Source of the DNA: Candidatus Woesearchaeota archaeon | Lineage (GTDB): Archaea; Nanobdellota; Nanobdellia; Woesearchaeales; UBA11716 | Assembly (NCBI GenBank): GCA_013329175.1 | Contig: DUKR01000077.1 | Coordinates: forward strand, 1 to 14,765 | Direction of reading: 5' to 3' | DNA: 14,765 bases | Part shown: positions 961 to 12,124 of the stretch, in pieces | Numbering within the stretch: the first letter of the stretch is position 1 | Layout: every line of letters starts with the position of its first letter | Made by a program: the position numbers and the translations under genes | Notes under the pieces: model-generated | Told to the model about the DNA's origin: nothing | The model's input: only the letters and a program-made list of their open reading frames with translations | The model's database searches: none

Positions 961-1329
961 TCACTTTTTTTCACTGTGCAGATTAATATATTTTTCGGTG
1001 GCCAAGAAAATAAAAAAAAGTATCTGTTAATAAATAAACATATTAAGTATTAAATTTAATGCCGCATTGATAAAAAAATAAATATAAAAAATAAGATTTC
1101 CATTTATAAATACTAAACCTTATTAGTTATAGCGCTTATCTAGATAACATGGAACACTTATTTAAAATAAAACTAGATATATTATTATTTAATAAAAATA
1201 ATTATTAATTAACCAAAAAAGCTAGCGTATTTATTAATGAACGTTTTTTATTAATATTATTTAGTATAACTAAAAAATCAAAAACCTTAAATAGTAATTA
1301 TAATAATAGATAGATAAATTTACTAACAA
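961..1329. promoter_or_regulatory. Divergent, extremely A/T-rich intergenic control region. It has TATA-like boxes about 27 nt upstream of both flanking start codons. It carries a perfect 12-bp palindrome TTATCTAGATAA (1136-1147). TAGATA recurs at 1141, 1174, 1307 and 1311. TTATTAAT occurs three times (1203-1210, 1231-1238, 1248-1255).
   Basis: Read directly from the sequence. The stretch AATTATAATAATAG at 1296-1309 is centred about 27 nt before the ATG at 1330. The stretch TTAATATATTTT at 983-994 (read on the minus strand) is centred about 27 nt before the ATG at 960. This spacing matches archaeal TATA-box/BRE architecture and leaderless transcripts. Confidence 0.4.
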
Positions 1330-1872
1330 ATGAGTAAAAAAATATCCACTTACACCATTGCAGGGCTCTTTACCCATGATTTCTCCAGAAGATATTATCT
1401 TAAAGAGATGGCTGATGCCCTTGGAAAACCTCATCAGACCCTCAAGCCCTATATCGCTGAGCTTGTGAAGCAAAGCATACTTATGGAGGAGAAGCGTGGG
1501 AATCTTCTCGAATACACACTCAACACAGGAAGTCCGTTGGTGGTAGCGTACTTGGCCATCGCAGAGCAAGAGCAAGCGTTAGAGCAAGCGAAAAAGGAGG
1601 GCTTCCTTGTTGAGCTGTTCTCTCTTGGAAGGGAGATGAAGGGGGCGATCATCGCCGCACCCATAGACAAAGAGCGATGGCACGTGGTGCATGTCGGGGG
1701 TGGGGTAATCAATAGGGAACACCCCCGATTTTCTTTTTCTCACTATGGGCAATTTGAGGAGATTCCCTTGGAGGAACTGAAAGGGCTCTATCGCGTTCAC
1801 GTGATATTCAGGGGAGTTGAAGAGGTTGTCAGCGAGTTTGTAAGGAGGTATGCACTGCATGGAATCGCCTAA
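1330..1872 (+). CDS. Hypothetical protein of 180 aa. The N-terminus looks like a winged helix-turn-helix (MADALGKPHQTLKPYIAELVKQSILMEEKRGNLLEY). The C-terminal roughly 90 aa are an unknown domain. I propose it as a candidate transcriptional regulator of the downstream operon.
   Basis: Intact ORF with probable leaderless start. The N-terminal residue pattern resembles MarR/ArsR-type wHTH recognition helix plus wing (inference from memory, not searched). The stop lies 14 nt inside the next gene. Confidence 0.5.
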   Translation: MSKKISTYTIAGLFTHDFSRRYYLKEMADALGKPHQTLKPYIAELVKQSILMEEKRGNLLEYTLNTGSPLVVAYLAIAEQEQALEQAKKEGFLVELFSLGREMKGAIIAAPIDKERWHVVHVGGGVINREHPRFSFSHYGQFEEIPLEELKGLYRVHVIFRGVEEVVSEFVRRYALHGIA

Positions 1873-3316
1873 GGATGAACGCAGAAAGGCAATGCCTGCT
1901 GTAACCTTCCTGCTGCTCATGGCGCTGGCCTTCATCGCAACGGTGCCAGAGCTATCTCTTGCTGCCACTGATGACGGATTGCTTGGAGTGATTGAGCCCA
2001 TCAGCAACCTTTTTGGGCCTATCATTGAACAGCTGAATTCAGTATGGGGGGGAAGTCCGGACGACTCAGCAATCTTTGTTGCCAAATTCGTGCTCTGGAT
2101 ACTTTTGTTTGCTTTACTCTACTACCCCTCAAACATGATTTTCAAGGATGCTGGCAAGGGAGTCAAGGTAGCCATTCCTTTTGTGCTTGCGCTGCTGGGC
2201 ACTGCGCTGATGCCTGCAGAGATCCTCATCAACGTCATGCAGACCTATGCGCTTGCCGGAGCTTTAATCCTGTGGATAATACCGATAGCCGGGACATGGT
2301 TCCTCATGCACAGGGTGCCGCAGGAGGGTGCATGGAAATTTTTACGCCTCATCCTTTACATCATCATCATTTACCTGTTGATGAACATTAGTGAATCAAT
2401 TACTTTCATGCTTGGCGATCTGCCTGAGTGGCTAAGCTATCTTAATCTTGTCATCGGCATCGTCACCATTATGTTCCTCAAGGAGTTGCTTACTATTTTC
2501 AGAGGTTCTGAAGCAGGGGGGGATGGAGGAAGTGGGGGTGGCGGCCTCTTTAACTGGTGGAAGAAAAAAATACCTTCCAGCCCTCAGGCCTTACCAGATG
2601 AAGTTGCAACGGCCCTCCAGGGAGCACAGAAGGCAGAGAAGCTGAGCAAAAAAGAGCAATATCTGCTCCAAGAAATCGAAAATCTTGAAAAACGGGAGAT
2701 TACCAAAACCGAAATGATAATTAATGATATCAACAAAATTGAGTCGGCTTTGCGAACTGGAAAACTAGATGAGCCTGTCAAGACAACCCTTGACAGTATG
2801 GCACGCTACTACAATGAAACAAGAACCATTGAGGATTATATTGAGCGTGAATTTAATCAGGTTCTAAACGATCTTGAACAGGAATATCAAGCGTTACGTC
2901 CACAGAAAGATCTTGCTAAGAGATTAATCAAAGTTGCCAACATAAAATTCCCCTTGAAGGCAGAAAAAGTCAAAAGGTACATTTCCACTATCAATAAGGA
3001 TATCACTAATTATATTCGCCAAATAAGAGAAAAAATAGAACTATATCAAGGAAAGCTAAAACGCCAGTTATCCCTCTTTAGGCAATTCATGCAGCTGGCA
3101 TATCAGCAACTTAATGGATTTGGCAATAGGGGTGCGGCACTAAGCTATCTCAATGATGCAAAAACTACAATGAATCTCATTCATGCTGACTTAGAAGGCA
3201 AGTTAAAGCCACTTACTGAGAAAATAAAAAATGACGTAGGAGGGGTTATCAGAAAGATTAAAGCGATGGAAAATGGAGACAAGAAGCTATTGCTAGGTAA
3301 AATAAACAGGTTTTGA
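1859..3316 (+). CDS. Exported polytopic membrane protein of about 485 aa. It has a Sec signal peptide (cleavage likely after SLAA), about 5 TM helices, a Gly-rich linker (GSEAGGDGGSGGGG) and a roughly 230-aa cytoplasmic coiled-coil tail. It is a paralog of 3328-4329.
   Basis: The ORF track gives 1850. I prefer the ATG at 1859 because a perfect SD AAGGAGGT (1842-1849) lies 9 nt upstream. The ATG at 1892 is also possible. Hydrophobic segments: FVAKFVLWILLFALLYY, VAIPFVLALLGTALMP, ALAGALILWIIPIAGTWFLM, LRLILYIIIIYLLMNI, LVIGIVTIMFL. The C-terminal half is charged and heptad-like with no Pro or Gly runs. Confidence 0.7.
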   Translation: MESPKDERRKAMPAVTFLLLMALAFIATVPELSLAATDDGLLGVIEPISNLFGPIIEQLNSVWGGSPDDSAIFVAKFVLWILLFALLYYPSNMIFKDAGKGVKVAIPFVLALLGTALMPAEILINVMQTYALAGALILWIIPIAGTWFLMHRVPQEGAWKFLRLILYIIIIYLLMNISESITFMLGDLPEWLSYLNLVIGIVTIMFLKELLTIFRGSEAGGDGGSGGGGLFNWWKKKIPSSPQALPDEVATALQGAQKAEKLSKKEQYLLQEIENLEKREITKTEMIINDINKIESALRTGKLDEPVKTTLDSMARYYNETRTIEDYIEREFNQVLNDLEQEYQALRPQKDLAKRLIKVANIKFPLKAEKVKRYISTINKDITNYIRQIREKIELYQGKLKRQLSLFRQFMQLAYQQLNGFGNRGAALSYLNDAKTTMNLIHADLEGKLKPLTEKIKNDVGGVIRKIKAMENGDKKLLLGKINRF

Positions 3317-3327
3317 GGTGCAGATAG

Positions 3328-4329
3328 ATGGTCATGGGAAAAAGCAAATCGAAAAAAAGAGGAGCAGCCAAATGGATAAGAATTGTAGCTGGAACAACTA
3401 TCTTATTCACTCTGTCAATTCCTTCAGCACTTGCCGCAACAGGCGACGTATCCTATGACTTAGGCTCAGTGCTCTACCGCATCATGGGCTGGCTCTTTGT
3501 TGATTTCTCTGACTCTGCCGGAAGCCTGCTCTATGAATTCTATCTCAAGTTTGCCTTGTTTGTGCTGGTCTTCGCCCTCTATTTCTTTGCAGCTACCAAA
3601 GCATTCAAGGGCGATGAGCACAAGAGCATCAGGATAACCATTGCCTTTGTTTTTGCCCTGCTCAGCGTTGCGCTCATTCCTCATCCCATCCTTGCTTCCA
3701 TTGCAGAGGGCTACAAGCTTGTCGGAACCGTTGTTTTCTTCCTGATTCCCGCTATTGGCTTTATCCTGCTCAACCATTATGCCTTTTCAGTCAAGGCGCG
3801 GGCGTACTATGGGGTGAAGGCCATCGTCTACTATGTCATTGCCATGCTCTTCCATAACATGTCAGCAGCAGGAGCTTCCTTTGCCTTTAATTTTCAGCAG
3901 CTTTCAAGCTTTGCTGAAGTCATTTTCATCTTTCTTGCAATTGCCAATCTCTTCATGGCGCTTACCTCAGGCGACGGAGTGGAGGGAGAGGAGGAAGGTG
4001 CTGGAAAATATGATGGCAGCAGCCCCATCTGGAAAGCGCTTGGAGGGCATGAGGATGGCCATGATGATAAAAAGGTGAAGCATGCGGAAAAGGAGGATGT
4101 TGACCATGAAGATGAGGCAAAGAAAAGAAAGCGGGAAGAGGCAGCTGAAGACTTAAAGACGCTGGAAGGCATCAGGGAAAGGATACGCTCGGAATTTAAC
4201 CATCTGGTGACTGCTCTGGATGAAACTGAAAATGACGCAAGAGAAAGGCTCAAGAGGCTTGCAGAGCGCATACGTGAGCTTGATGCAATACAGCGGAGGA
4301 TTAATGCATTGTCCCAGCAGCAAGCATGA
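3328..4329 (+). CDS. Exported polytopic membrane protein of 333 aa. It has a Sec signal peptide (ALAA|TGD), 4-5 TM helices, an acidic His/Asp/Glu/Lys-rich linker and a short cytoplasmic coiled-coil tail. It is a paralog of 1859-3316.
   Basis: SD GAGGTG at 3315-3320 lies 7 nt before the ATG and overlaps the upstream stop. Alignable blocks with the upstream gene: SDSAGSLLYEFYLKFALFVLVFALYFF vs DDSAIFVAKFVLWILLFALLYY, and FKGDEHKSIRITIAFVFALLSVALIPHPIL vs FKDAGKGVKVAIPFVLALLGTALMPAEIL. Both have an LIP..G...L.H motif after TM3. Confidence 0.7.
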   Translation: MVMGKSKSKKRGAAKWIRIVAGTTILFTLSIPSALAATGDVSYDLGSVLYRIMGWLFVDFSDSAGSLLYEFYLKFALFVLVFALYFFAATKAFKGDEHKSIRITIAFVFALLSVALIPHPILASIAEGYKLVGTVVFFLIPAIGFILLNHYAFSVKARAYYGVKAIVYYVIAMLFHNMSAAGASFAFNFQQLSSFAEVIFIFLAIANLFMALTSGDGVEGEEEGAGKYDGSSPIWKALGGHEDGHDDKKVKHAEKEDVDHEDEAKKRKREEAAEDLKTLEGIRERIRSEFNHLVTALDETENDARERLKRLAERIRELDAIQRRINALSQQQA

Positions 4330-4871
4330 CCATGGCTCAGGCAACCCTTTCTCAGGTGCGCAAGGCGTATGAGCAGCTTGTACTATCCATACTCAACGAG
4401 CTAAGAAAGACTATCGAGGATCTCCAGAGGGAAAGAAAAGAGCTTGAGTACAGCCTAAAAGCAGTACTTGAAAAAATCCACGATGAAAAGTTGCAGGAGA
4501 TTTTTAATAACCTCAGTGAGGAAAAAAAAAACGAACATCGAGCAAAAGTTGAGAATTTCAAAAAGCTTCGAAGCACAGGCATAGCAGTAAGCAGGCAGGA
4601 TGAGAAAACTGCTCACACCATCCTTCGTGAAATAAGCCAAAATATAGTTGTCCTTGAGAGCATGGTAACCACGTTGACGGGCATCATGAGGGAATCAAAA
4701 AACCTGTACCATCTTGATACCAATGCATTGTATCAGGGCATTTTAGGTGTCCATGAATCCCTCAAGAAAAGAGAAAAAGTTATCCTCCAAGAGATTGAGC
4801 CGCATGTAACAAGCTTTTTTAATTACTTGGAGCAGGCAAAGATAGAGTTGCTTGCTCAGGTTAATTCCTAA
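4326..4871 (+). CDS. Soluble coiled-coil protein of 181 aa. It is a paralog of the N-terminal domain of 4885-6429.
   Basis: ATGA overlap with the upstream gene indicates translational coupling. Charged heptad-like sequence. It shares blocks with the next gene: SQVRKAYEQLVLSILNELRKTIEDLQRERKEL vs AQLKKKYEELALFIFNQIEQTITELLDERKLL, and NLYHLDTNALYQGILGVHESL vs ALYNLNTNELYSKIMLVHDAI. Confidence 0.65.
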   Translation: MTMAQATLSQVRKAYEQLVLSILNELRKTIEDLQRERKELEYSLKAVLEKIHDEKLQEIFNNLSEEKKNEHRAKVENFKKLRSTGIAVSRQDEKTAHTILREISQNIVVLESMVTTLTGIMRESKNLYHLDTNALYQGILGVHESLKKREKVILQEIEPHVTSFFNYLEQAKIELLAQVNS

Positions 4872-4884
4872 AGGAAACACTATC

Positions 4885-6429
4885 ATGGCAGACCAGCAAC
4901 TGGCACAGCTCAAGAAAAAGTATGAGGAGCTTGCTCTCTTTATCTTTAATCAGATTGAGCAAACGATAACGGAATTACTGGATGAGCGAAAGCTTTTGCA
5001 GCAGAAGGGAAAGGCTGGCATAACCATGCTGCATGTAAACAAAAAGGCAGAAGCGATTGCTTTGAAGGCAAAAATAGCTCTTTCTGCTGATATTCAACAG
5101 CGTTATGATGCTGCTTTGCAGCAATTTGATGCACTTTTGAATAAGGCAACCATTCTTGAGCATCAGGAAGAGCACGCAGTTAAAACCATTCTGCAAAGGC
5201 TTGATACTGAGATTGCTGAACTTCAGGCGTTGGCTAGTCAGGTCACTGCAGCCCATCAAACGAGACCTGCGTTGTATAACCTTAACACAAACGAGCTCTA
5301 TAGTAAAATTATGCTTGTCCATGATGCAATAACCAAGCAGCAGGAGCACGAGCAGAAGTTTAGAGCAGCAAGACAAGAATTTGAACAAGAGCTTGGCCAA
5401 AAAATTCATGAAATTGAAGCTATCCTGAGTGAGAAAGCTATTGCTACTATTGCAACTCCAGTAGTACAAGGTAATACTATTACTACGTCTCAGGGAAGTG
5501 TTCAACCATTAGCCATAGCTCCTGGAGGGCAAAGTGGAGTTATTGGACATGATGAAAAAGATTCAGTCGTGCAGACTGTAAAAATCGACCTGAACAATCT
5601 TGAGCATGCTGATAACATCATTCAATTCCAGCGCAGTGACAGGGAAGTTAGGAAAGCTTTTCAAGTGCTGGAAAAGAAAAGAATGGAAGGTCAGTTGCTG
5701 AAGGCAAAGAAAGCTATAAAGGCAGTCACCACTAAAATTAATATGTATGGACCAAAATACAACAGTGGAGAGTATAAACTGGCATTTATGACAAATGTTG
5801 TCGACCAGTATATGGAGTATATGTATGGGGTACTGTATAGCTATCTTCTTCATGTGGATGAAGCATCGGAATTTATTGCAACCTTATATAGCAGGCTGGA
5901 GACTATTGAAAGCACTAAGCTCACTAAATTTCAAAAAGAGAAAGTTGCAATTATTGCTCACCTCGTGAAGATTGCAGGAGAAACAGACGACAAAAGACCA
6001 GGAAACCTAGGAAAAAAAGGTAAAATTCCTCGGGAATTGCCTGCAAAGATTGATAGCTATGTTACTAATGAACTAAAGATTCTTGAACAAGATACACCAC
6101 CAGGCAGAATCCAAGTAGATATTGACAGGTTACAACTCTTAATTCTTCAGCTTGAAAAAAAACTAAAGAAAGCTATGCATTTAGCTGAACAAAGGATAAA
6201 AGCCTCTTACTTTGCATGGACAAAACGTGGCTATCAAGGGGCTGTAGGGCATCTGAATACCCTCAACATCCTTGTTGATGAGAAAATAAGGTTAGTGAAA
6301 CAAATGATGGATATTGAGCAGCAGATTAGCACAAAGCTTGAAAACCATATCTTCAATTATCTTAATGACAATAAAAAGCTAAAGGACCTTCAAAAGCTGC
6401 TAAGAAAGATACATCTTGGCGAAATTTAG
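4885..6429 (+). CDS. Coiled-coil protein of about 514 aa. The N-terminal roughly 190 aa are homologous to 4326-4871. A Thr/Gly/Gln-rich linker follows (ATPVVQGNTITTSQGSVQPLAIAPGGQSG), then a roughly 300-aa C-terminal domain of unknown function.
   Basis: The ORF track start at 4852 would overlap the upstream gene. The alignment with its paralog begins at MADQQ (ATG 4885), and AGGAAA lies 8 nt upstream, so 4885 is preferred. No TM segment. I recognise no family. Confidence 0.65.
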   Translation: MADQQLAQLKKKYEELALFIFNQIEQTITELLDERKLLQQKGKAGITMLHVNKKAEAIALKAKIALSADIQQRYDAALQQFDALLNKATILEHQEEHAVKTILQRLDTEIAELQALASQVTAAHQTRPALYNLNTNELYSKIMLVHDAITKQQEHEQKFRAARQEFEQELGQKIHEIEAILSEKAIATIATPVVQGNTITTSQGSVQPLAIAPGGQSGVIGHDEKDSVVQTVKIDLNNLEHADNIIQFQRSDREVRKAFQVLEKKRMEGQLLKAKKAIKAVTTKINMYGPKYNSGEYKLAFMTNVVDQYMEYMYGVLYSYLLHVDEASEFIATLYSRLETIESTKLTKFQKEKVAIIAHLVKIAGETDDKRPGNLGKKGKIPRELPAKIDSYVTNELKILEQDTPPGRIQVDIDRLQLLILQLEKKLKKAMHLAEQRIKASYFAWTKRGYQGAVGHLNTLNILVDEKIRLVKQMMDIEQQISTKLENHIFNYLNDNKKLKDLQKLLRKIHLGEI

Positions 6430-6435
6430 GTAACC

Positions 6436-7098
6436 TTATCGGGAAAGTTTTTTTTGAGTAATAGTAGCAGTGTATACAGGACCAGCTGACCGTGCTCCCG
6501 CTGCGCCAGTAACATAGCTTGGAATCAGTAAAGAGGAGGATGGATTATTAATGATCTCAGCAATCACTGCATTTAACTGGCTTACATTCTCTGGAAAGGG
6601 CTTGCTGGGGTCAACTTTTATAACTGCTGTGTTGCCTGCTGCATCTTGAAACATCTCTACGTTATCACCTAGTGGGACTATTGCATTAAGATACGTTTGA
6701 TCATTTGGACCTTTAATTAATTCTAGTTTAGGTCCAAGATTCTGAGCTGGACCAATTACTTGAACATAGTCAGCTGTTACCCTAAGAAAATCCGCTAAAT
6801 TATCCCTTCCTTCAACTGTGACATATTTACCTACCGTATTCCTTACTTTAAGAGCAGTGTTGTAGCCATCAGTTATAACATTCTCACCTAGCTTAGTAAC
6901 AGAGTTAGCAGCATCCCACTTATCCTCCCCATATTTAATAACACTACTTACTCCACTTACTATGTAAGGTAGGGAATAAAGGGCAAGGGCACCGGCAGCC
7001 ATAAATTTAATAATCTTGCCTGCCTTTCTTTTTGACTTTTGTGGTGCTATTAAATCTTGTAGAGTTTTGGACATTTCCATAGCAAATCCAGAAAGCAT
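6436..7098 (-). CDS. Membrane-anchored exported protein of 214-220 aa. It has a single N-terminal TM/signal anchor (IIKFMAAGALALYSLPYIVSGV) and an extracytoplasmic beta-rich domain. It sits immediately downstream of the SPFH gene.
   Basis: Intact ORF. A perfect archaeal TATA TTTATATA (minus-strand reading of 7105-7112) is centred about 27 nt upstream of the in-frame ATG at 7080 (MEMSKTL). The true start may therefore be 7080 with a leaderless mRNA, or the gene is co-transcribed with SPFH. I recognise no family; the position is analogous to NfeD partners of SPFH proteins. Confidence 0.55.
   Translation of the reverse strand: MLSGFAMEMSKTLQDLIAPQKSKRKAGKIIKFMAAGALALYSLPYIVSGVSSVIKYGEDKWDAANSVTKLGENVITDGYNTALKVRNTVGKYVTVEGRDNLADFLRVTADYVQVIGPAQNLGPKLELIKGPNDQTYLNAIVPLGDNVEMFQDAAGNTAVIKVDPSKPFPENVSQLNAVIAEIINNPSSSLLIPSYVTGAAGARSAGPVYTATITQKKLSR
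6448..6455 (+). terminator. Oligo-T tract (T8) 19 nt downstream of the stop of 4885-6429. It is a candidate archaeal intrinsic terminator. It lies inside the last codons of the convergent minus-strand gene.
   Basis: The T8 run is read directly. Archaeal RNA polymerase terminates at oligo-T tracts (established). The assignment of function here is inference. Confidence 0.3.
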
Positions 7099-7147: not shown

Positions 7148-8425
7148 TTACAGGTTTGTGGTTGTATTTTCTGCAGAATATATAGACTTTGTGGGTCTTA
7201 TAACACCCTTATTTGGACTCAGGTACGCCCCCAATTGGTTTGCAAGAGCATCAAGAACATTTCCCCCAAAATTTGTCATTTGCAAGTTTAATTTCTGCTC
7301 CTGGATCATACTGATAAGGGCTGCATACCGCCCGCCATCCTTTGCTATTTCAACACTAATCTTTTGTATTGTCTCTGCCTGTGCTTCTGCTAACTTTTTC
7401 ATTGCATTAGCATCTGCTTCCCCTTTTGTCATGATTGCATAAGCAGTGGCATCGGCATCTTTTTTTTGTGCTTCATATGTTGCTTGTGCAGCATATTTTA
7501 GCGCAGCGGCTTTAGTGACTTCTTCATCTGGAGTAATACGTTGAAAGCTCACTGAAAGAATTTCCAGTCCTAAATTGTTATATGTTTGGTTAAGCCCACT
7601 GATCATCTGATTACCAACGTTATGCTCAGCATTAATCTCATCAAACGTATGGCTCCCAATGTATTTTCTTACAAGTGCGCTTGCTTCAGCCCAGACCTGC
7701 CCTATAGGGTCGTTTGCTCCGTACAGCGCCTGCCTGACTGATTTGTAATCATCACCGATCTTTATGCTAATAACAGCATCAATGGTAGTTGAAAGCCCAT
7801 CCTTAGTTACAATGCCTTCCTCTTGCTGAAGGTCAATCTGGGTGATGCTGGTGTCAACCACATCCCACTGGGTAAAAATTGGAACCCTTAAGTGCAGCCC
7901 AGCTCCATGCATTTTTTGCTCACGCTCATTCCAAAGCATGGCAAGCCCTTTAGGAATATTCCACACAGACCATGCGTTTTCGCTGTTGTCTTGAGGAGTT
8001 GGGCTATATCCAGACAGATATTTTCCTACCTTTTGGTAGCCTCCAACTGATTGCACCACACTGTGCGCTCCATAGCCAAGAATAGCAAACGGAGCTATTG
8101 CAGAAACTGTGGAACCAATAAAGGGAAGATAGGAAGCAGGAGCAGTGGCCAACGGAGAAACTTTCCATACTGCCCATGTAGCAAGCGCCCTTAGCACAGG
8201 ATTCTGTTTCTGGGGCCTGCCAAGGGTTTTTGGTATTGCCCGCTGGTCAGGCTCAAGCATTGCTGCTGGTGAATATATGCTTTGCCAACCGGGCATTAGG
8301 CTGTTAAAATAATTTTTATGAATAAGAAGCTTTTCTGCAATAGAATCGACTACGGCTTCTAAATCACCCGCTTCAGAAGTAGTCGCCTCACCTATTCCAA
8401 CTGGTATGTACTCATCGTCTGCCAT
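7148..8425 (-). CDS. SPFH/band-7 (stomatin/prohibitin/flotillin/HflKC) domain protein of 425 aa. It has a roughly 170-aa N-terminal extension that includes a hydrophobic hairpin-like segment. The C-terminus is an Ala/Lys/Glu-rich helix.
   Basis: Core SPFH signature blocks are present: GLHLRVPIFTQWDVVDTSITQIDL, VTKDGLSTTIDAVISIKIGD, ALVRKYIGSHTFDEI and LGLEILSVSFQRITPDEEV, followed by AQATYEAQKKDADATAYAIMTKGEADANA. This is typical of the family from established knowledge. A TATA-like TTTAAATA (minus-strand reading of 8496-8503) lies upstream. Confidence 0.85.
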   Translation of the reverse strand: MADDEYIPVGIGEATTSEAGDLEAVVDSIAEKLLIHKNYFNSLMPGWQSIYSPAAMLEPDQRAIPKTLGRPQKQNPVLRALATWAVWKVSPLATAPASYLPFIGSTVSAIAPFAILGYGAHSVVQSVGGYQKVGKYLSGYSPTPQDNSENAWSVWNIPKGLAMLWNEREQKMHGAGLHLRVPIFTQWDVVDTSITQIDLQQEEGIVTKDGLSTTIDAVISIKIGDDYKSVRQALYGANDPIGQVWAEASALVRKYIGSHTFDEINAEHNVGNQMISGLNQTYNNLGLEILSVSFQRITPDEEVTKAAALKYAAQATYEAQKKDADATAYAIMTKGEADANAMKKLAEAQAETIQKISVEIAKDGGRYAALISMIQEQKLNLQMTNFGGNVLDALANQLGAYLSPNKGVIRPTKSIYSAENTTTNL

Positions 8426-8539: not shown

Positions 8540-9208
8540 CTACGCAAACGCTGTCGCAGGAGTCCTGGCGTAAGGCTGCGCAGGAAGATAGTCTCCTGCT
8601 ATGCGTTTTACCCTGTCAAGAACACGCCTGGACATAGGCTTTTTTGCTTTGTACAATCCCTGCTCCTTGAGGAACTCGGTAACTCCTTCCGAAATAGCCT
8701 TTTTGCTGGTAATTCTGGTCATGACATTGTAGTCAAGACTTAGGCAGATAACAGGAATCAACCATGCTATTGCTTTTGAGCCAAGCCAGTCTGCAGCTCC
8801 ATACACATCCCATGTCTCACTCAGATAGCTGTAGAGGGATGGCAATTCCAGCGCCGCTTTTCCTCCTACAAGCGCTGCCTGAAACAGCCCAAAGTCACCA
8901 AACGGAGTGCCTTTAAGAAAATGGTAGGCATCATTGACAATCGCTCCAATACCTGTGCCCTTCGTAGCAGCGCTGGTAAGCATACCAAGATGCTTTTGAT
9001 GATGATCAACCCTGCCCTGTATTTTCTGCTCAAGAGAGGAATATAATTGCTGCTTCTCTTCATCAGTCTTGCCTGCAAACAATTGCTTACTAATGTCAGT
9101 TGAAAGATAGTTCCTGATGCCATCCGCTACAGGCTCAAGAGGCGTGTAAGGTCGGGAGCAATACGGCAATTCACCCTTCTTCCTAATCTTACACTTCTGG
9201 GCTACCAT
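8540..9208 (-). CDS. Hypothetical protein of 222 aa from the ATG at 9208 (the ORF extends to 9340, 266 aa). It contains one or two hydrophobic segments (AIAWLIPVICLSLDY).
   Basis: Long ORF in a region that is not A/T-rich and so is likely coding. The first 44 codons of the 266-aa version overlap a more protein-like plus-strand ORF, so I prefer the shorter start. No family recognised. Confidence 0.4.
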   Translation of the reverse strand: MVAQKCKIRKKGELPYCSRPYTPLEPVADGIRNYLSTDISKQLFAGKTDEEKQQLYSSLEQKIQGRVDHHQKHLGMLTSAATKGTGIGAIVNDAYHFLKGTPFGDFGLFQAALVGGKAALELPSLYSYLSETWDVYGAADWLGSKAIAWLIPVICLSLDYNVMTRITSKKAISEGVTEFLKEQGLYKAKKPMSRRVLDRVKRIAGDYLPAQPYARTPATAFA

Positions 9209-9256: not shown

Positions 9257-9505
9257 ATGAGGTTTAAGGAGTATATCTCTGACAGGCCGGCAGTCATCAG
9301 GGCAGTCAAGGTTCTTGGCAACTGTGACCTCATGCTGCACATCGCAACAAAGGATGCTTCAGAGCTTCACAAGACTATCAAAGGCATCTATAAGGCATTT
9401 GTTGATATCATCACAGGCTACCAGGCATGGGGAGCCTACAAAGAGCACTTTTTCACAATCTTTCCTGCTGTTGTTTCTGACAAAGAAAATGCAGAGCAGA
9501 AGTGA
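9257..9505 (+). CDS. Small protein of 82 aa (95 aa from 9218). It has a possible beta-alpha-beta ACT/RAM-like pattern (AVIRAVKVLGNCDLMLHIATKDASELHKTIKGIY). It may be co-transcribed with pth2.
   Basis: The amphipathic periodicity is protein-like. It has the same orientation as pth2 and gpmA, with only 48 nt and no TATA box before pth2. The resemblance to Lrp/AsnC ligand-binding domains is weak and from memory only. Confidence 0.35.
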   Translation: MRFKEYISDRPAVIRAVKVLGNCDLMLHIATKDASELHKTIKGIYKAFVDIITGYQAWGAYKEHFFTIFPAVVSDKENAEQK

Positions 9506-10714: not shown

Positions 10715-12124
10715 GGATATTCATGCCGCCCATTGGCATCGTAATCGTTCACTATCATGAAGCTTTTTCTTCATTCTCCTCCGCCTCAATCCATGCGTTC
10801 CATGGCGGCTCATTCCAGAAAAACGGGCCATTACCTGGGGCTTCCTGCCACAAGCGTCGCTTCTGTTCTCTCTGTTTTTGCCAGACGTAACATTGCTATT
10901 TACAATTCCGTCATGCACTGTATAGTCCCTCATCCTTCATACACGCTCGTGCAGCGCACTGACTTTTGCCAATGGCTGCGTGCATTTCTGTCTTCAGCGT
11001 TTTTCACCCGTTACAGCAGAAAACCTGTGTGCCGTCAATTACGCGAGCATTGGCAGTGTTGTGGTGGCGAAGGTCGTGGGGGGTTGTCCCTTACGGGGGT
11101 GCGACCTCATCGTCCCGCTTCATCTCCATGCGAGCCGACGGCACACCAATGGTTTTCTGCTCGAGTGAAAAACGCTAAGGAAAACGCCAAGGCCTTCATC
11201 ACCTCCAAAGAGAAATGCAGCAACAATCGCTTCAGGAAAGTGAACAATTATGGAGAAATGCATTGATATTGTGACACCGCGATGGATTGCGTCTGCTGAC
11301 ACCTCTCCACGCATTTCGCCTATTGAATAATTGCGGCTACTGTCACATAAATACCGCAATTATCCATACTTGGCATCCCGACAAACCCTAAGCTCCGCCT
11401 CTTCGCCTGCATCAACGACAGGAGACAGGAAGAGGCAACAATGGCATCCTGCGCTCCCCCGCATCACGAGGGCTGATGTGAAGGAACTCAAGCGCTGGGT
11501 GCTAAGGCAGGGGCATGCCCGCAACATCTTCGCCACCGCAACCAGATGCATGGGCTTCTGTAACGATGAATCAAGAAGTATAGGCAGCAGGCCATCGCCT
11601 ATTGCGTACTCCTTCACTTTCTTGAAAAGCCCTGCCCGGGAGGAAGGATACAGGCTCGCTGGATAGCCATGAGTTAAGGCTTTGAGGGATATTGGCAGGC
11701 AGGCTCGTGGAAAGCTGGCATTCCCAAAAAACTCAGTAGAAAAAAAGGCATTAGCCATGCCTCCCGTCGCATCCACACTCAATTCGTAACTCCCTTCTTT
11801 TCGTTTCAGGCAATCCACTCAATGCACAATCCGAGGTAAACAAAAAAGCCTCAGCTGGCCAGCAGGGCATGTGTTGCAGCCATTGCCGCAGTGTAGCGCG
11901 CTGCACCGTCAGGCATGGAGGATGGGCGCTGGCAGCAGTGCACGACGGAATTTCCATCATCAGGATTTGCAGCACAAACAGGGGAGGGAGGAAAAATAAA
12001 GGGATGGGATGAGAAAGAAGCCACAGGCAATGAGCTTTTAGGGAATGCCTTTTCGGGAGCGATGCCCATCACAGTTACAAAGAGGCAGGCAACTTCATAA
12101 AGGTGAAGTACTACCCTATTGCCC
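10715..12124. other. A 1.4-kb region with no credible protein-coding ORF on either strand. It could be a decayed pseudogene remnant or a long structured ncRNA.
   Basis: All six frames are broken into ORFs of at most 169 aa with junk-like Cys/Arg/Ser/His-rich translations that overlap each other on both strands. The region is not A/T-rich like true intergenic DNA here. Confidence 0.3.

Follow-up and report, generated by a model that had tools for sequence, protein, structure and literature searches.

The gene at positions 1330-1872 on the plus strand of a complete 14,765-nt contig from a Candidatus Woesearchaeota (DPANN) archaeon, which was analyzed here as a whole and is referred to as the window, encodes a protein of 180 amino acids. 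By descent, this protein belongs to a family in which a winged helix-turn-helix (wHTH) is fused to a minimal nucleotidyltransferase (MNT) domain of the antitoxin type. It has lost the catalytic motif of that domain, its gene has lost the HEPN partner, and the Shine-Dalgarno (SD) sequence and gene overlap at its 3' end are inherited. We consider it fairly likely that the gene is a degenerate, catalytically dead and solo member of the antitoxin-type wHTH-MNT family, which has been domesticated or is decaying.

Family membership and loss of the nucleotidyltransferase core

When used as the query, the window protein yielded no match in Pfam, NCBIfam, PHROGs or PDB sequences, and a word-indexed homologue search returned solely the protein itself. 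Only an exhaustive phmmer search of 1.84 billion representatives exposed its family, consisting of 43 relatives, mostly of 180-210 amino acids, with the consensus LGxPHQT...(wHTH)...IAEKE...FGSxxxxxxxxxxDIDLL...KKHIILNGxExFV. Among 32 members that were compared with Pfam, Polbeta (PF18765) was matched by 22 and NTP_transf_2 (PF01909) by 20, together with scattered weak HTH matches in the N-terminus. For a profile of the intact members, the best solved relative is the Shewanella MntA antitoxin (5yep/6m6v, E 1.5e-4), which aligns across helix-beta1-GSX10DXD-beta2, and intact members are covered from end to end by the PADLOC profile PDC-M05A (E up to 5e-18). As judged from these profiles, the family is a winged helix fused to an MNT domain of the antitoxin type. 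The window protein is colinear with the 196-residue intact member P0044 from residue 1 to 172 (BLASTP, E 4e-34) and is matched by PDC-M05A at residues 13-80 only (E 7.5e-4).

A first-pass annotation of the gene, made from the DNA letters, had proposed a MarR/ArsR-like wHTH at the N-terminus, and this part of the protein is indeed the best defined. In the AlphaFold model, which was based on a 75-sequence alignment, residues 7-64 form three helices followed by two strands, with a predicted local distance difference test score (pLDDT) >90. When the model was compared with the PDB, Foldseek retrieved only winged-helix regulators, with a probability of 1.0, these being AdcR, AspA, CzrA, SmtB and Sso10a-2, at target-normalised TM-scores of up to 0.65. 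The protein remained unmatched by the curated HTH families (Pfam MarR, HTH_5, HTH_20 and others, and NCBIfam). A hidden Markov model (HMM) of the family N-domain, from which the query had been left out, gives residues 1-87 a score of 103 bits (E 3e-34), and the identity of this domain to the closest intact relatives (48% to P0044 and 46% to P0002) is within the range found between intact pairs. The recognition helix hardly differs from that of P0044, and the window protein, as far as its sequence can tell, probably still binds DNA. The long helix that follows the wing probably serves dimerisation, and its residue E79 is nearly invariant across the family. A GSx10ExE string at residues 67-81 fits a regular expression of the catalytic motif; this string was dismissed as a catalytic site, as it sits in the wing and linker helix.

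The C-terminal half could not be placed in the first-pass annotation, which suggested that it could be a ligand-sensing part. We found no support for this and instead, based on HMM, hhalign and AlphaFold results, a degenerate MNT remnant. The HMM of the family C-domain, which likewise excludes the query, gives residues 88-180 only 11.5 bits (single-comparison E 1.4e-5), which is higher than all of 2000 shuffled sequences (maximum 7.3). The alignment covers only the last ~38 residues (~136-174) and is corroborated by hhalign (P 1e-3). In this part, the model shows two helices of moderate confidence (residues 147-176), in which His157 is kept, while Gly152 stands where nearly all members have a Glu in the C-terminal helix. 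Residues 95-138, by comparison, cannot be aligned to the family at significance by either HMM or hhalign, and are modelled at pLDDT <50 without secondary structure. Pfam nucleotidyltransferase models (Polbeta and NTP_transf_2) gave no match in the window protein at E<=1. When P0044 was modelled with the same sequences, it reached a mean pLDDT of 95 as a wHTH, linker and alpha/beta MNT, and its model matched both wHTH regulators and MNT antitoxins in Foldseek (MntA 6m6u/6m6w, Legionella 8xeh/8xeo and HI0073 1no5). As P0044 folds and residues 95-138 of the window protein do not, the failure lies in the window sequence and not in the alignment.

The loss of the catalytic motif holds in every alignment that we made, by BLASTP or MAFFT. 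The G, S, D and D columns of GSX10DXD are invariant in all 74 other aligned sequences and absent from the window protein. BLASTP pairs IIFGS of P0044 with IIAAP, and DSDIDLLVIG with a gap and WHVVHVGG, while MAFFT shifts the residue placement slightly (LGR/PID). The identity of the replacements thus depends on the alignment, with GS becoming AA/AP or GR and DxD becoming RxH or PxD. In addition, the C-domain has lost ~13 and ~8 residues (~21 together) and gained a five-residue insertion. A compensated frameshift that hides the motif was considered and rejected, as the other two frames of 1330-2100 are unmatched by the family C-domain HMM. In MntA, the replacement of GS by AT, or of DXD by EXE, abolishes AMPylation and weakens toxin neutralisation (Yao et al. 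2020, PMC7641770). Taken with the loss of all four motif residues, these mutant data provide a strong argument for a catalytically dead domain. The protein does belong to a known enzymatic family by descent (MNT), but this copy has lost GSX10DXD. On the sequence comparisons and the model, we therefore read the "unplaceable" C-terminus as an eroded remnant of an MNT (Pol-beta superfamily) domain.

The two halves of the protein have diverged unequally. C-domain identity is only 22% to P0044 and 24% to P0002, whereas intact pairs with a similar N-domain divergence (33-67%) retain 30-60% identity in the C-domain. This asymmetry indicates that the wHTH stayed constrained while the MNT domain was released. 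Two of the 31 other representative members, P0028 and P0037, are likewise without GSX10DXD, so that erosion of the MNT may have occurred more than once.

The HEPN partner and the operon junction

In five loci of relatives (L011-L015), the wHTH-MNT gene is followed by a directly overlapping gene of 155-186 amino acids that is annotated or recognisable as HEPN (PF05168). In a larger set of 80 loci from GTDB species representatives, which contain 92 family open reading frames (ORFs), 74 of the 92 have an adjacent downstream HEPN-like ORF. These partners carry R-x4-Y in 62 of 67 cases and Rx4-6H in 9 of 67; the R-x4-Y motif identifies them as Class II HEPN/MNT modules, which are prevalent in archaea and biochemically unstudied (Yao et al., PMC7641770). 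The modules of the relatives correspond to the mobile MNT-HEPN pairs described earlier (Makarova et al. 2009, PMC2701414). One Nanoarchaeota/Woesearchaeota contig (L014:5001-9676) holds two wHTH-MNT/HEPN-like pairs in ~4 kb, with an integrase gene and a Schlafen/AlbA_2-HATPase gene nearby, which suggests that such modules cluster in mobile or defence islands. In the window, a six-frame HMM search found no HEPN (best E 0.23), and on the same result we rejected a HEPN at another site of the window or in fusion with the membrane and coiled-coil genes.

The place of the HEPN gene is taken in the window by gene 2, the first of the membrane genes. As had been noted in the first pass, the gene at 1330-1872 heads a co-directional operon, and its ORF, an internal SD (AAGGAGGT) at 1842-1849 and an overlap with the next gene are all present, such that its 3' end bears both the SD and the start of gene 2. 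Two ATG codons are candidates for this start. The one at 1850 is implausible because it abuts the SD with no spacing, and every gene caller selects the in-frame ATG at 1859, which lies 9 nt past the SD and gives a protein of 485 amino acids and an overlap of 14 nt (1859-1872).

Comparison with the relatives shows where this arrangement comes from. In L011, L012 and L014, the conserved W-R(-Y) codons TGGAG(G)TAT lie 5-7 nt before the HEPN ATG, and the HEPN gene thus starts in overlap with the MNT stop codon (L011:775-810; L012:5585-5618; L014:5590-5618; the corresponding stretch of the window is 1842-1872, with AGGAGG). The window SD is the positional homologue of the family codons TGGAGG(TAT), that is, of the SD of the HEPN gene, and the window AGGAGGTAT (R-R-Y) stands at the same distance from the stop codon as the L014 TGGAGGTAT (W-R-Y). 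The start codon of gene 2 falls one codon past the position of the HEPN ATG, with the relative frame unchanged. Given the matching SD, distance and frame, the buried SD and buried stop codon are ancestral MNT-HEPN features, and our reading of these sequences is that the junction descends from the MNT-HEPN module and was taken over by an unrelated membrane gene. In L014, the start assigned to the HEPN gene by the gene caller (5563) is probably too early; from the ATG 7 nt past GGAGG, the protein begins MKSDNRNESHISWC and the overlap is 17 nt.

In the protein encoded by gene 2, a charged n-region is accompanied by a hydrophobic segment (residues 9-37) and additional transmembrane (TM) segments, and its description in the first-pass annotation as a signal-peptide gene is therefore reasonable. 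It shows no HEPN similarity, and no homologue was found in 5.8 billion clusters, making it an ORFan. Genes 2 and 3 both encode signal-peptide/multi-TM proteins with Gly-rich linkers and coiled-coil tails, and no Pfam, NCBIfam or PHROG family was found for operon genes 2-5. Strain variants present indels in the membrane/coiled-coil operon, while the regulator gene is invariant.

Promoter and operator

The upstream regions of 41 relatives are strongly conserved. They contain a B recognition element (BRE) and TATA box (cGAAAcaTTTTTATA), with the TATA at -31..-24, followed by TGGTA at about -19..-15, TACCAY at -6..-1 and ATGGTAGA at the start, and 41 of 42 genes, including those of L011, L012 and L014, have no SD. 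These sites are found at L011:175-234, at L012/L014:4955-5015 and in L016-L058, ~45 nt before the family gene starts. The TATA position points to a transcription start site at the ATG, and so to a leaderless mRNA. TACCAT-ATGGTA forms a 12-nt palindrome across the start codon of the relatives, and the L011 promoter carries TGGTA-N9-TACCATATGGTA. The core ACCAYRTGGT occurs at 37 of 92 family gene starts and once in 405 kb of flanking DNA. From its sequence and classical geometry, the palindrome is likely an autorepressor operator, and it may account for the invariant 'MV' N-terminus of the family. We know of no description of this promoter or palindrome.

In the window, the gene is preceded by an unusually long intergenic region (961-1329), which has a GC content of 0.18, as compared with 0.45 for the window as a whole, contains only low-complexity AT-rich repeats and is identical in the 10 contigs examined; no tRNA or Rfam family was found in it. 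The gene had been called leaderless in the first pass, which is plausible. No SD-like motif lies within 40 nt upstream of the ATG at 1330, and a TATA-like box at 1298-1305 stands at the distance seen in the family, so that the mRNA would be leaderless if this box is used. However, the stretch that MAFFT pairs with the family BRE/TATA, at 1279-1294, lies 13 nt farther upstream of the ATG than it does in any of the 41 relatives, and its use would imply an SD-less leader of ~13 nt. The alignment of such AT-rich DNA is uncertain.

Several candidate operators were considered and rejected. The family operator was searched for elsewhere in the window, where GGTA-N7-11-TACC gave 0 matches and TACCAYATGGTA, with <=3 mismatches, was found at chance level. 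Inverted repeats in 961-1329, as well as TTACT-N8-AGTAA around the ATG at 1330, are no better than expected in DNA of 18% GC.

Coding status and distribution

The ORF runs from the ATG at 1330 to the TAA at 1870-1872. Its C-terminal 93 codons are open, with 6 and 4 stops in the other two frames, and this half stays open in just 0.5% of shuffles (p=0.005). Periodicity of GC across the three codon positions (GC1/GC2/GC3) is coding-like in both halves. Because of the N-half profile score of 103 bits, the open C-terminal frame and the coding periodicity, the ORF is a genuine gene and not a chance one. The GC3 of 0.54 is native, similar to that of pth2, gpmA and the AMP phosphorylase gene. Together with the open C-half, this native composition indicates neither a recent import nor a fresh pseudogene. 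A viral or mobile origin was rejected, as IMG/VR and GenBank phages contain no relatives and the composition is native.

The same contig sequence recurs in many groundwater metagenomes. Across 10 independent contigs, 0 nucleotide differences were found in the gene and its upstream region, and the sole cluster mate of the protein differs by S6F. The exhaustive phmmer search found no orthologues at 50-99% identity.

Interpretation and alternative explanations

The course of events that we favor can be outlined as follows. The ancestral arrangement, which the relatives still show, is a leaderless module of two genes, with the wHTH-MNT gene leading and a Class II (PF05168-type) HEPN gene second; the SD from which HEPN is translated lies within the terminal codons of the MNT gene. 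In the Woesearchaeon studied here, the HEPN gene has been lost and the MNT core has eroded, with no GSX10DXD, ~21 residues deleted and no foldable structure. The winged helix, the linker and C-terminal helices and the SD/overlap have been retained. Nucleotide transfer would then be gone, and the protein would act only by binding DNA, probably as a dimer and most likely as a repressor or other regulator of transcription; its promoter would now drive an ORFan membrane/coiled-coil operon. The DNA target may be its own remodelled promoter or might, in trans, be the canonical operators of other modules in the genome, and regulation of the membrane module would be plausible. The gene and gene 2 are probably coupled in translation.

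Some points weigh against this explanation and should be considered. The palindrome TGGTA-N9-TACCAY-ATGGTA, a subfamily feature conserved among the closest relatives, is absent from the window promoter and from the whole contig despite the near-identical recognition helix of P0044, so that autoregulation at 961-1329 would have to proceed without a recognisable site. With no diversity among the 10 contigs and no orthologue in the range of 50-99% identity, purifying selection on this gene is not measurable. Finally, residues in the middle region could hold a new function that is invisible to sequence comparison or AlphaFold.

The alternative that fares best, although we regard it as unlikely, is that the gene is a functionless relic, a 'leader cistron' whose ORF is kept open only for the promoter of gene 2 and for coupling through the 3'-embedded SD and overlap. 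The catalytic motif, the HEPN partner and the canonical operator are all gone, the middle of the protein is unfoldable, the lineage is a singleton without orthologues, and the best-preserved feature of the 3' end is the SD/overlap itself, all of which would suit such a relic. Nonetheless, decay of this kind is expected to be uniform, whereas the wHTH is as conserved (46-48%) as between intact relatives and the C-domain is far more diverged. The whole 180-codon frame is, moreover, intact, with coding periodicity in both halves.

Still less probable, in our view, is the idea behind the first-pass annotation, namely that the protein is a sensor or regulator dedicated to the membrane module, in which the remodelled C-domain would be a ligand sensor or, in an extension of that idea, would touch the cytoplasmic coiled-coil tails of the proteins from genes 2-5. 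The gene shares an operon with these genes and is probably coupled to gene 2 in translation, the ORF of its C-half is maintained, and MNT domains ancestrally bind both nucleotide and protein, since they bind HEPN (PMC7641770). However, no pocket or fold is predicted for residues 95-138, the Mg-NTP-binding residues are gone and no operator is recognisable. The operon junction is a legacy of the MNT-HEPN module with no specific tie to the membrane genes, which, being ORFans, allow no co-occurrence test. Positive evidence does not extend beyond operon position. An exapted antitoxin, in which a membrane/coiled-coil module specific to this DPANN lineage would have the wHTH-pseudo-MNT as its dedicated regulator and the pseudo-enzyme domain would be a sensor or docking surface, is improbable to the same degree.

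That the protein still works as an antitoxin, neutralising by sequestration and not by AMPylation either a HEPN toxin from another contig or a downstream membrane protein that is toxic, is very improbable. In favor of it, ~20% of family genes in the GTDB loci lack an adjacent HEPN, several such modules are frequent in DPANN genomes (L014 has two within 4 kb) and the C-terminal helices are retained. Against it, the 14.7-kb contig holds no HEPN, neutralisation in the studied systems depends on GSX10DXD, and gene 2 encodes a 485-amino acid multi-TM protein with an adjacent paralogue, unlike a toxin of a toxin-antitoxin (TA) system.

On its own, the degenerate wHTH-MNT gene is of limited importance; it illustrates, modestly, how a gene decays or is re-used, and is no new kind of sensor. 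What was a 'hypothetical protein' nonetheless becomes a clear case of a TA-type gene that is without its enzyme and its partner and has kept its DNA-binding head. It also shows that an unrelated membrane gene can capture the region that initiated translation of a HEPN gene now lost. Solo dead antitoxin derivatives would be one route by which mobile two-gene modules give rise to new transcription factors in small DPANN genomes. A by-product of the analysis is possibly more useful, as the promoter palindrome of the intact family is a directly testable candidate operator for archaeal Class II HEPN/MNT modules.

Other features of the window

The features considered are listed in Table 1. Between gpmA and the AMP phosphorylase gene lies a 1.4-kb region (10715-12124) with a GC content of 0.51 and no convincing gene. 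The ORFs called there, of 169 (+) and 152 (-) amino acids, have odd, Cys/Arg/Ser-rich translations without a Pfam match, and a search of the region against Rfam gave nothing above noise.

Table 1 Features of the window, with positions given in the numbering of the contig. Residue numbers refer to the protein encoded at 1330-1872.
Feature	Position	Strand	Basis or remark
Intergenic promoter region, 369 nt, shared with divergent genes of 76 and 240 amino acids	961..1329	.	
Stretch CAAAAACCTTAAATAG, aligning with family BRE/TATA (cGAAAcaTTTTTATA)	1279..1294	+	MAFFT, 42 upstream regions
TATA-like box TTATAATA, -32..-25 from ATG	1298..1305	+	Same distance as family TATA at -31..-24
Gene for degenerate wHTH-MNT protein, 180 amino acids	1330..1872	+	NCBI HA361_03670, annotated hypothetical
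Winged helix-turn-helix, residues 7-64, recognition helix PHQTLKPYIAELV	1348..1521	+	AlphaFold (AF2), Foldseek, family profile
Long linker helix, residues 69-90, AYLAIAEQEQALEQAKK	1534..1599	+	AF2
Eroded nucleotidyltransferase core, residues 95-138	1612..1743	+	pLDDT <50, motif columns lost
C-terminal helices, residues 136-174, ...LKGLYRVHVIFRGVEEVVSEFVRRY	1735..1851	+	Homologous to family tail KEIxKKHIILNGxExFV
SD AAGGAGGT for gene 2, within the 1330-1872 coding sequence (codons V-R-R)	1842..1849	+	
Gene 2, signal-peptide/multi-TM protein of 485 amino acids, coiled-coil tail	1859..3316	+	Occupies HEPN position of relatives
Gene 3, paralogue of gene 2	3328-4329	+	BLASTP E 4e-18
Gene 4, soluble coiled-coil protein, paralogue of gene 5	4326-4871	+	BLASTP E 8e-19
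Gene 5, soluble coiled-coil protein	4885-6429	+	BLASTP E 8e-19 to gene 4
SPFH/Band-7 protein of 425 amino acids, long N-terminal extension	7148-8425	-	
ORFan genes flanking the SPFH/Band-7 gene	6436-7098 and 8540-9208	-	
Stand-alone Lrp/AsnC ligand-binding (RAM-like) domain protein of 82 amino acids, adjoining	9257-9505	+	

Comparison with known systems

Residues 1-90 of the window protein share with MarR, ArsR-SmtB and PadR-like regulators (AdcR 5jls, CzrA 1r1u, AspA 5k5q and Sso10a-2 4hw0) a fold made of a three-helix bundle, a beta-hairpin wing and a long helix. Unlike in these regulators, there are no metal- or ligand-binding residues to point to, and the wHTH is followed by an eroded nucleotidyltransferase and not by a MarR dimerisation or ligand domain.

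The MntA/HepT type VII TA system of Shewanella oneidensis (5yep, 6m6u-w; PMC7641770) is the nearest relative of the MNT part, as MntA is closest to the family MNT domain in both sequence and fold. The two also share their gene order, with an MNT gene first and an overlapping HEPN gene second. MntA, however, has no wHTH, unlike the family, and its HEPN partner carries RX4HXY where the family partners mostly carry R-x4-Y. The window protein differs further from MntA/HepT in having neither the catalytic motif nor an adjacent HEPN in the window.

The closest likeness is to the archaeal and DPANN wHTH-MNT proteins, which are annotated as 'nucleotidyltransferase domain-containing protein' and matched by PDC-M05A. 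The window protein differs from them in having no GSX10DXD and no Pfam nucleotidyltransferase match and in being ~21 residues shorter, and its locus differs in the lack of a HEPN gene and of the canonical operator, in 13 extra nucleotides in the promoter and in the membrane gene downstream. It is, nonetheless, colinear with and homologous to these proteins over its full length, and shares with them the winged helix with its PHQT recognition helix, the linker and C-terminal helices, the SD in the terminal codons and the overlapping start of the downstream gene.

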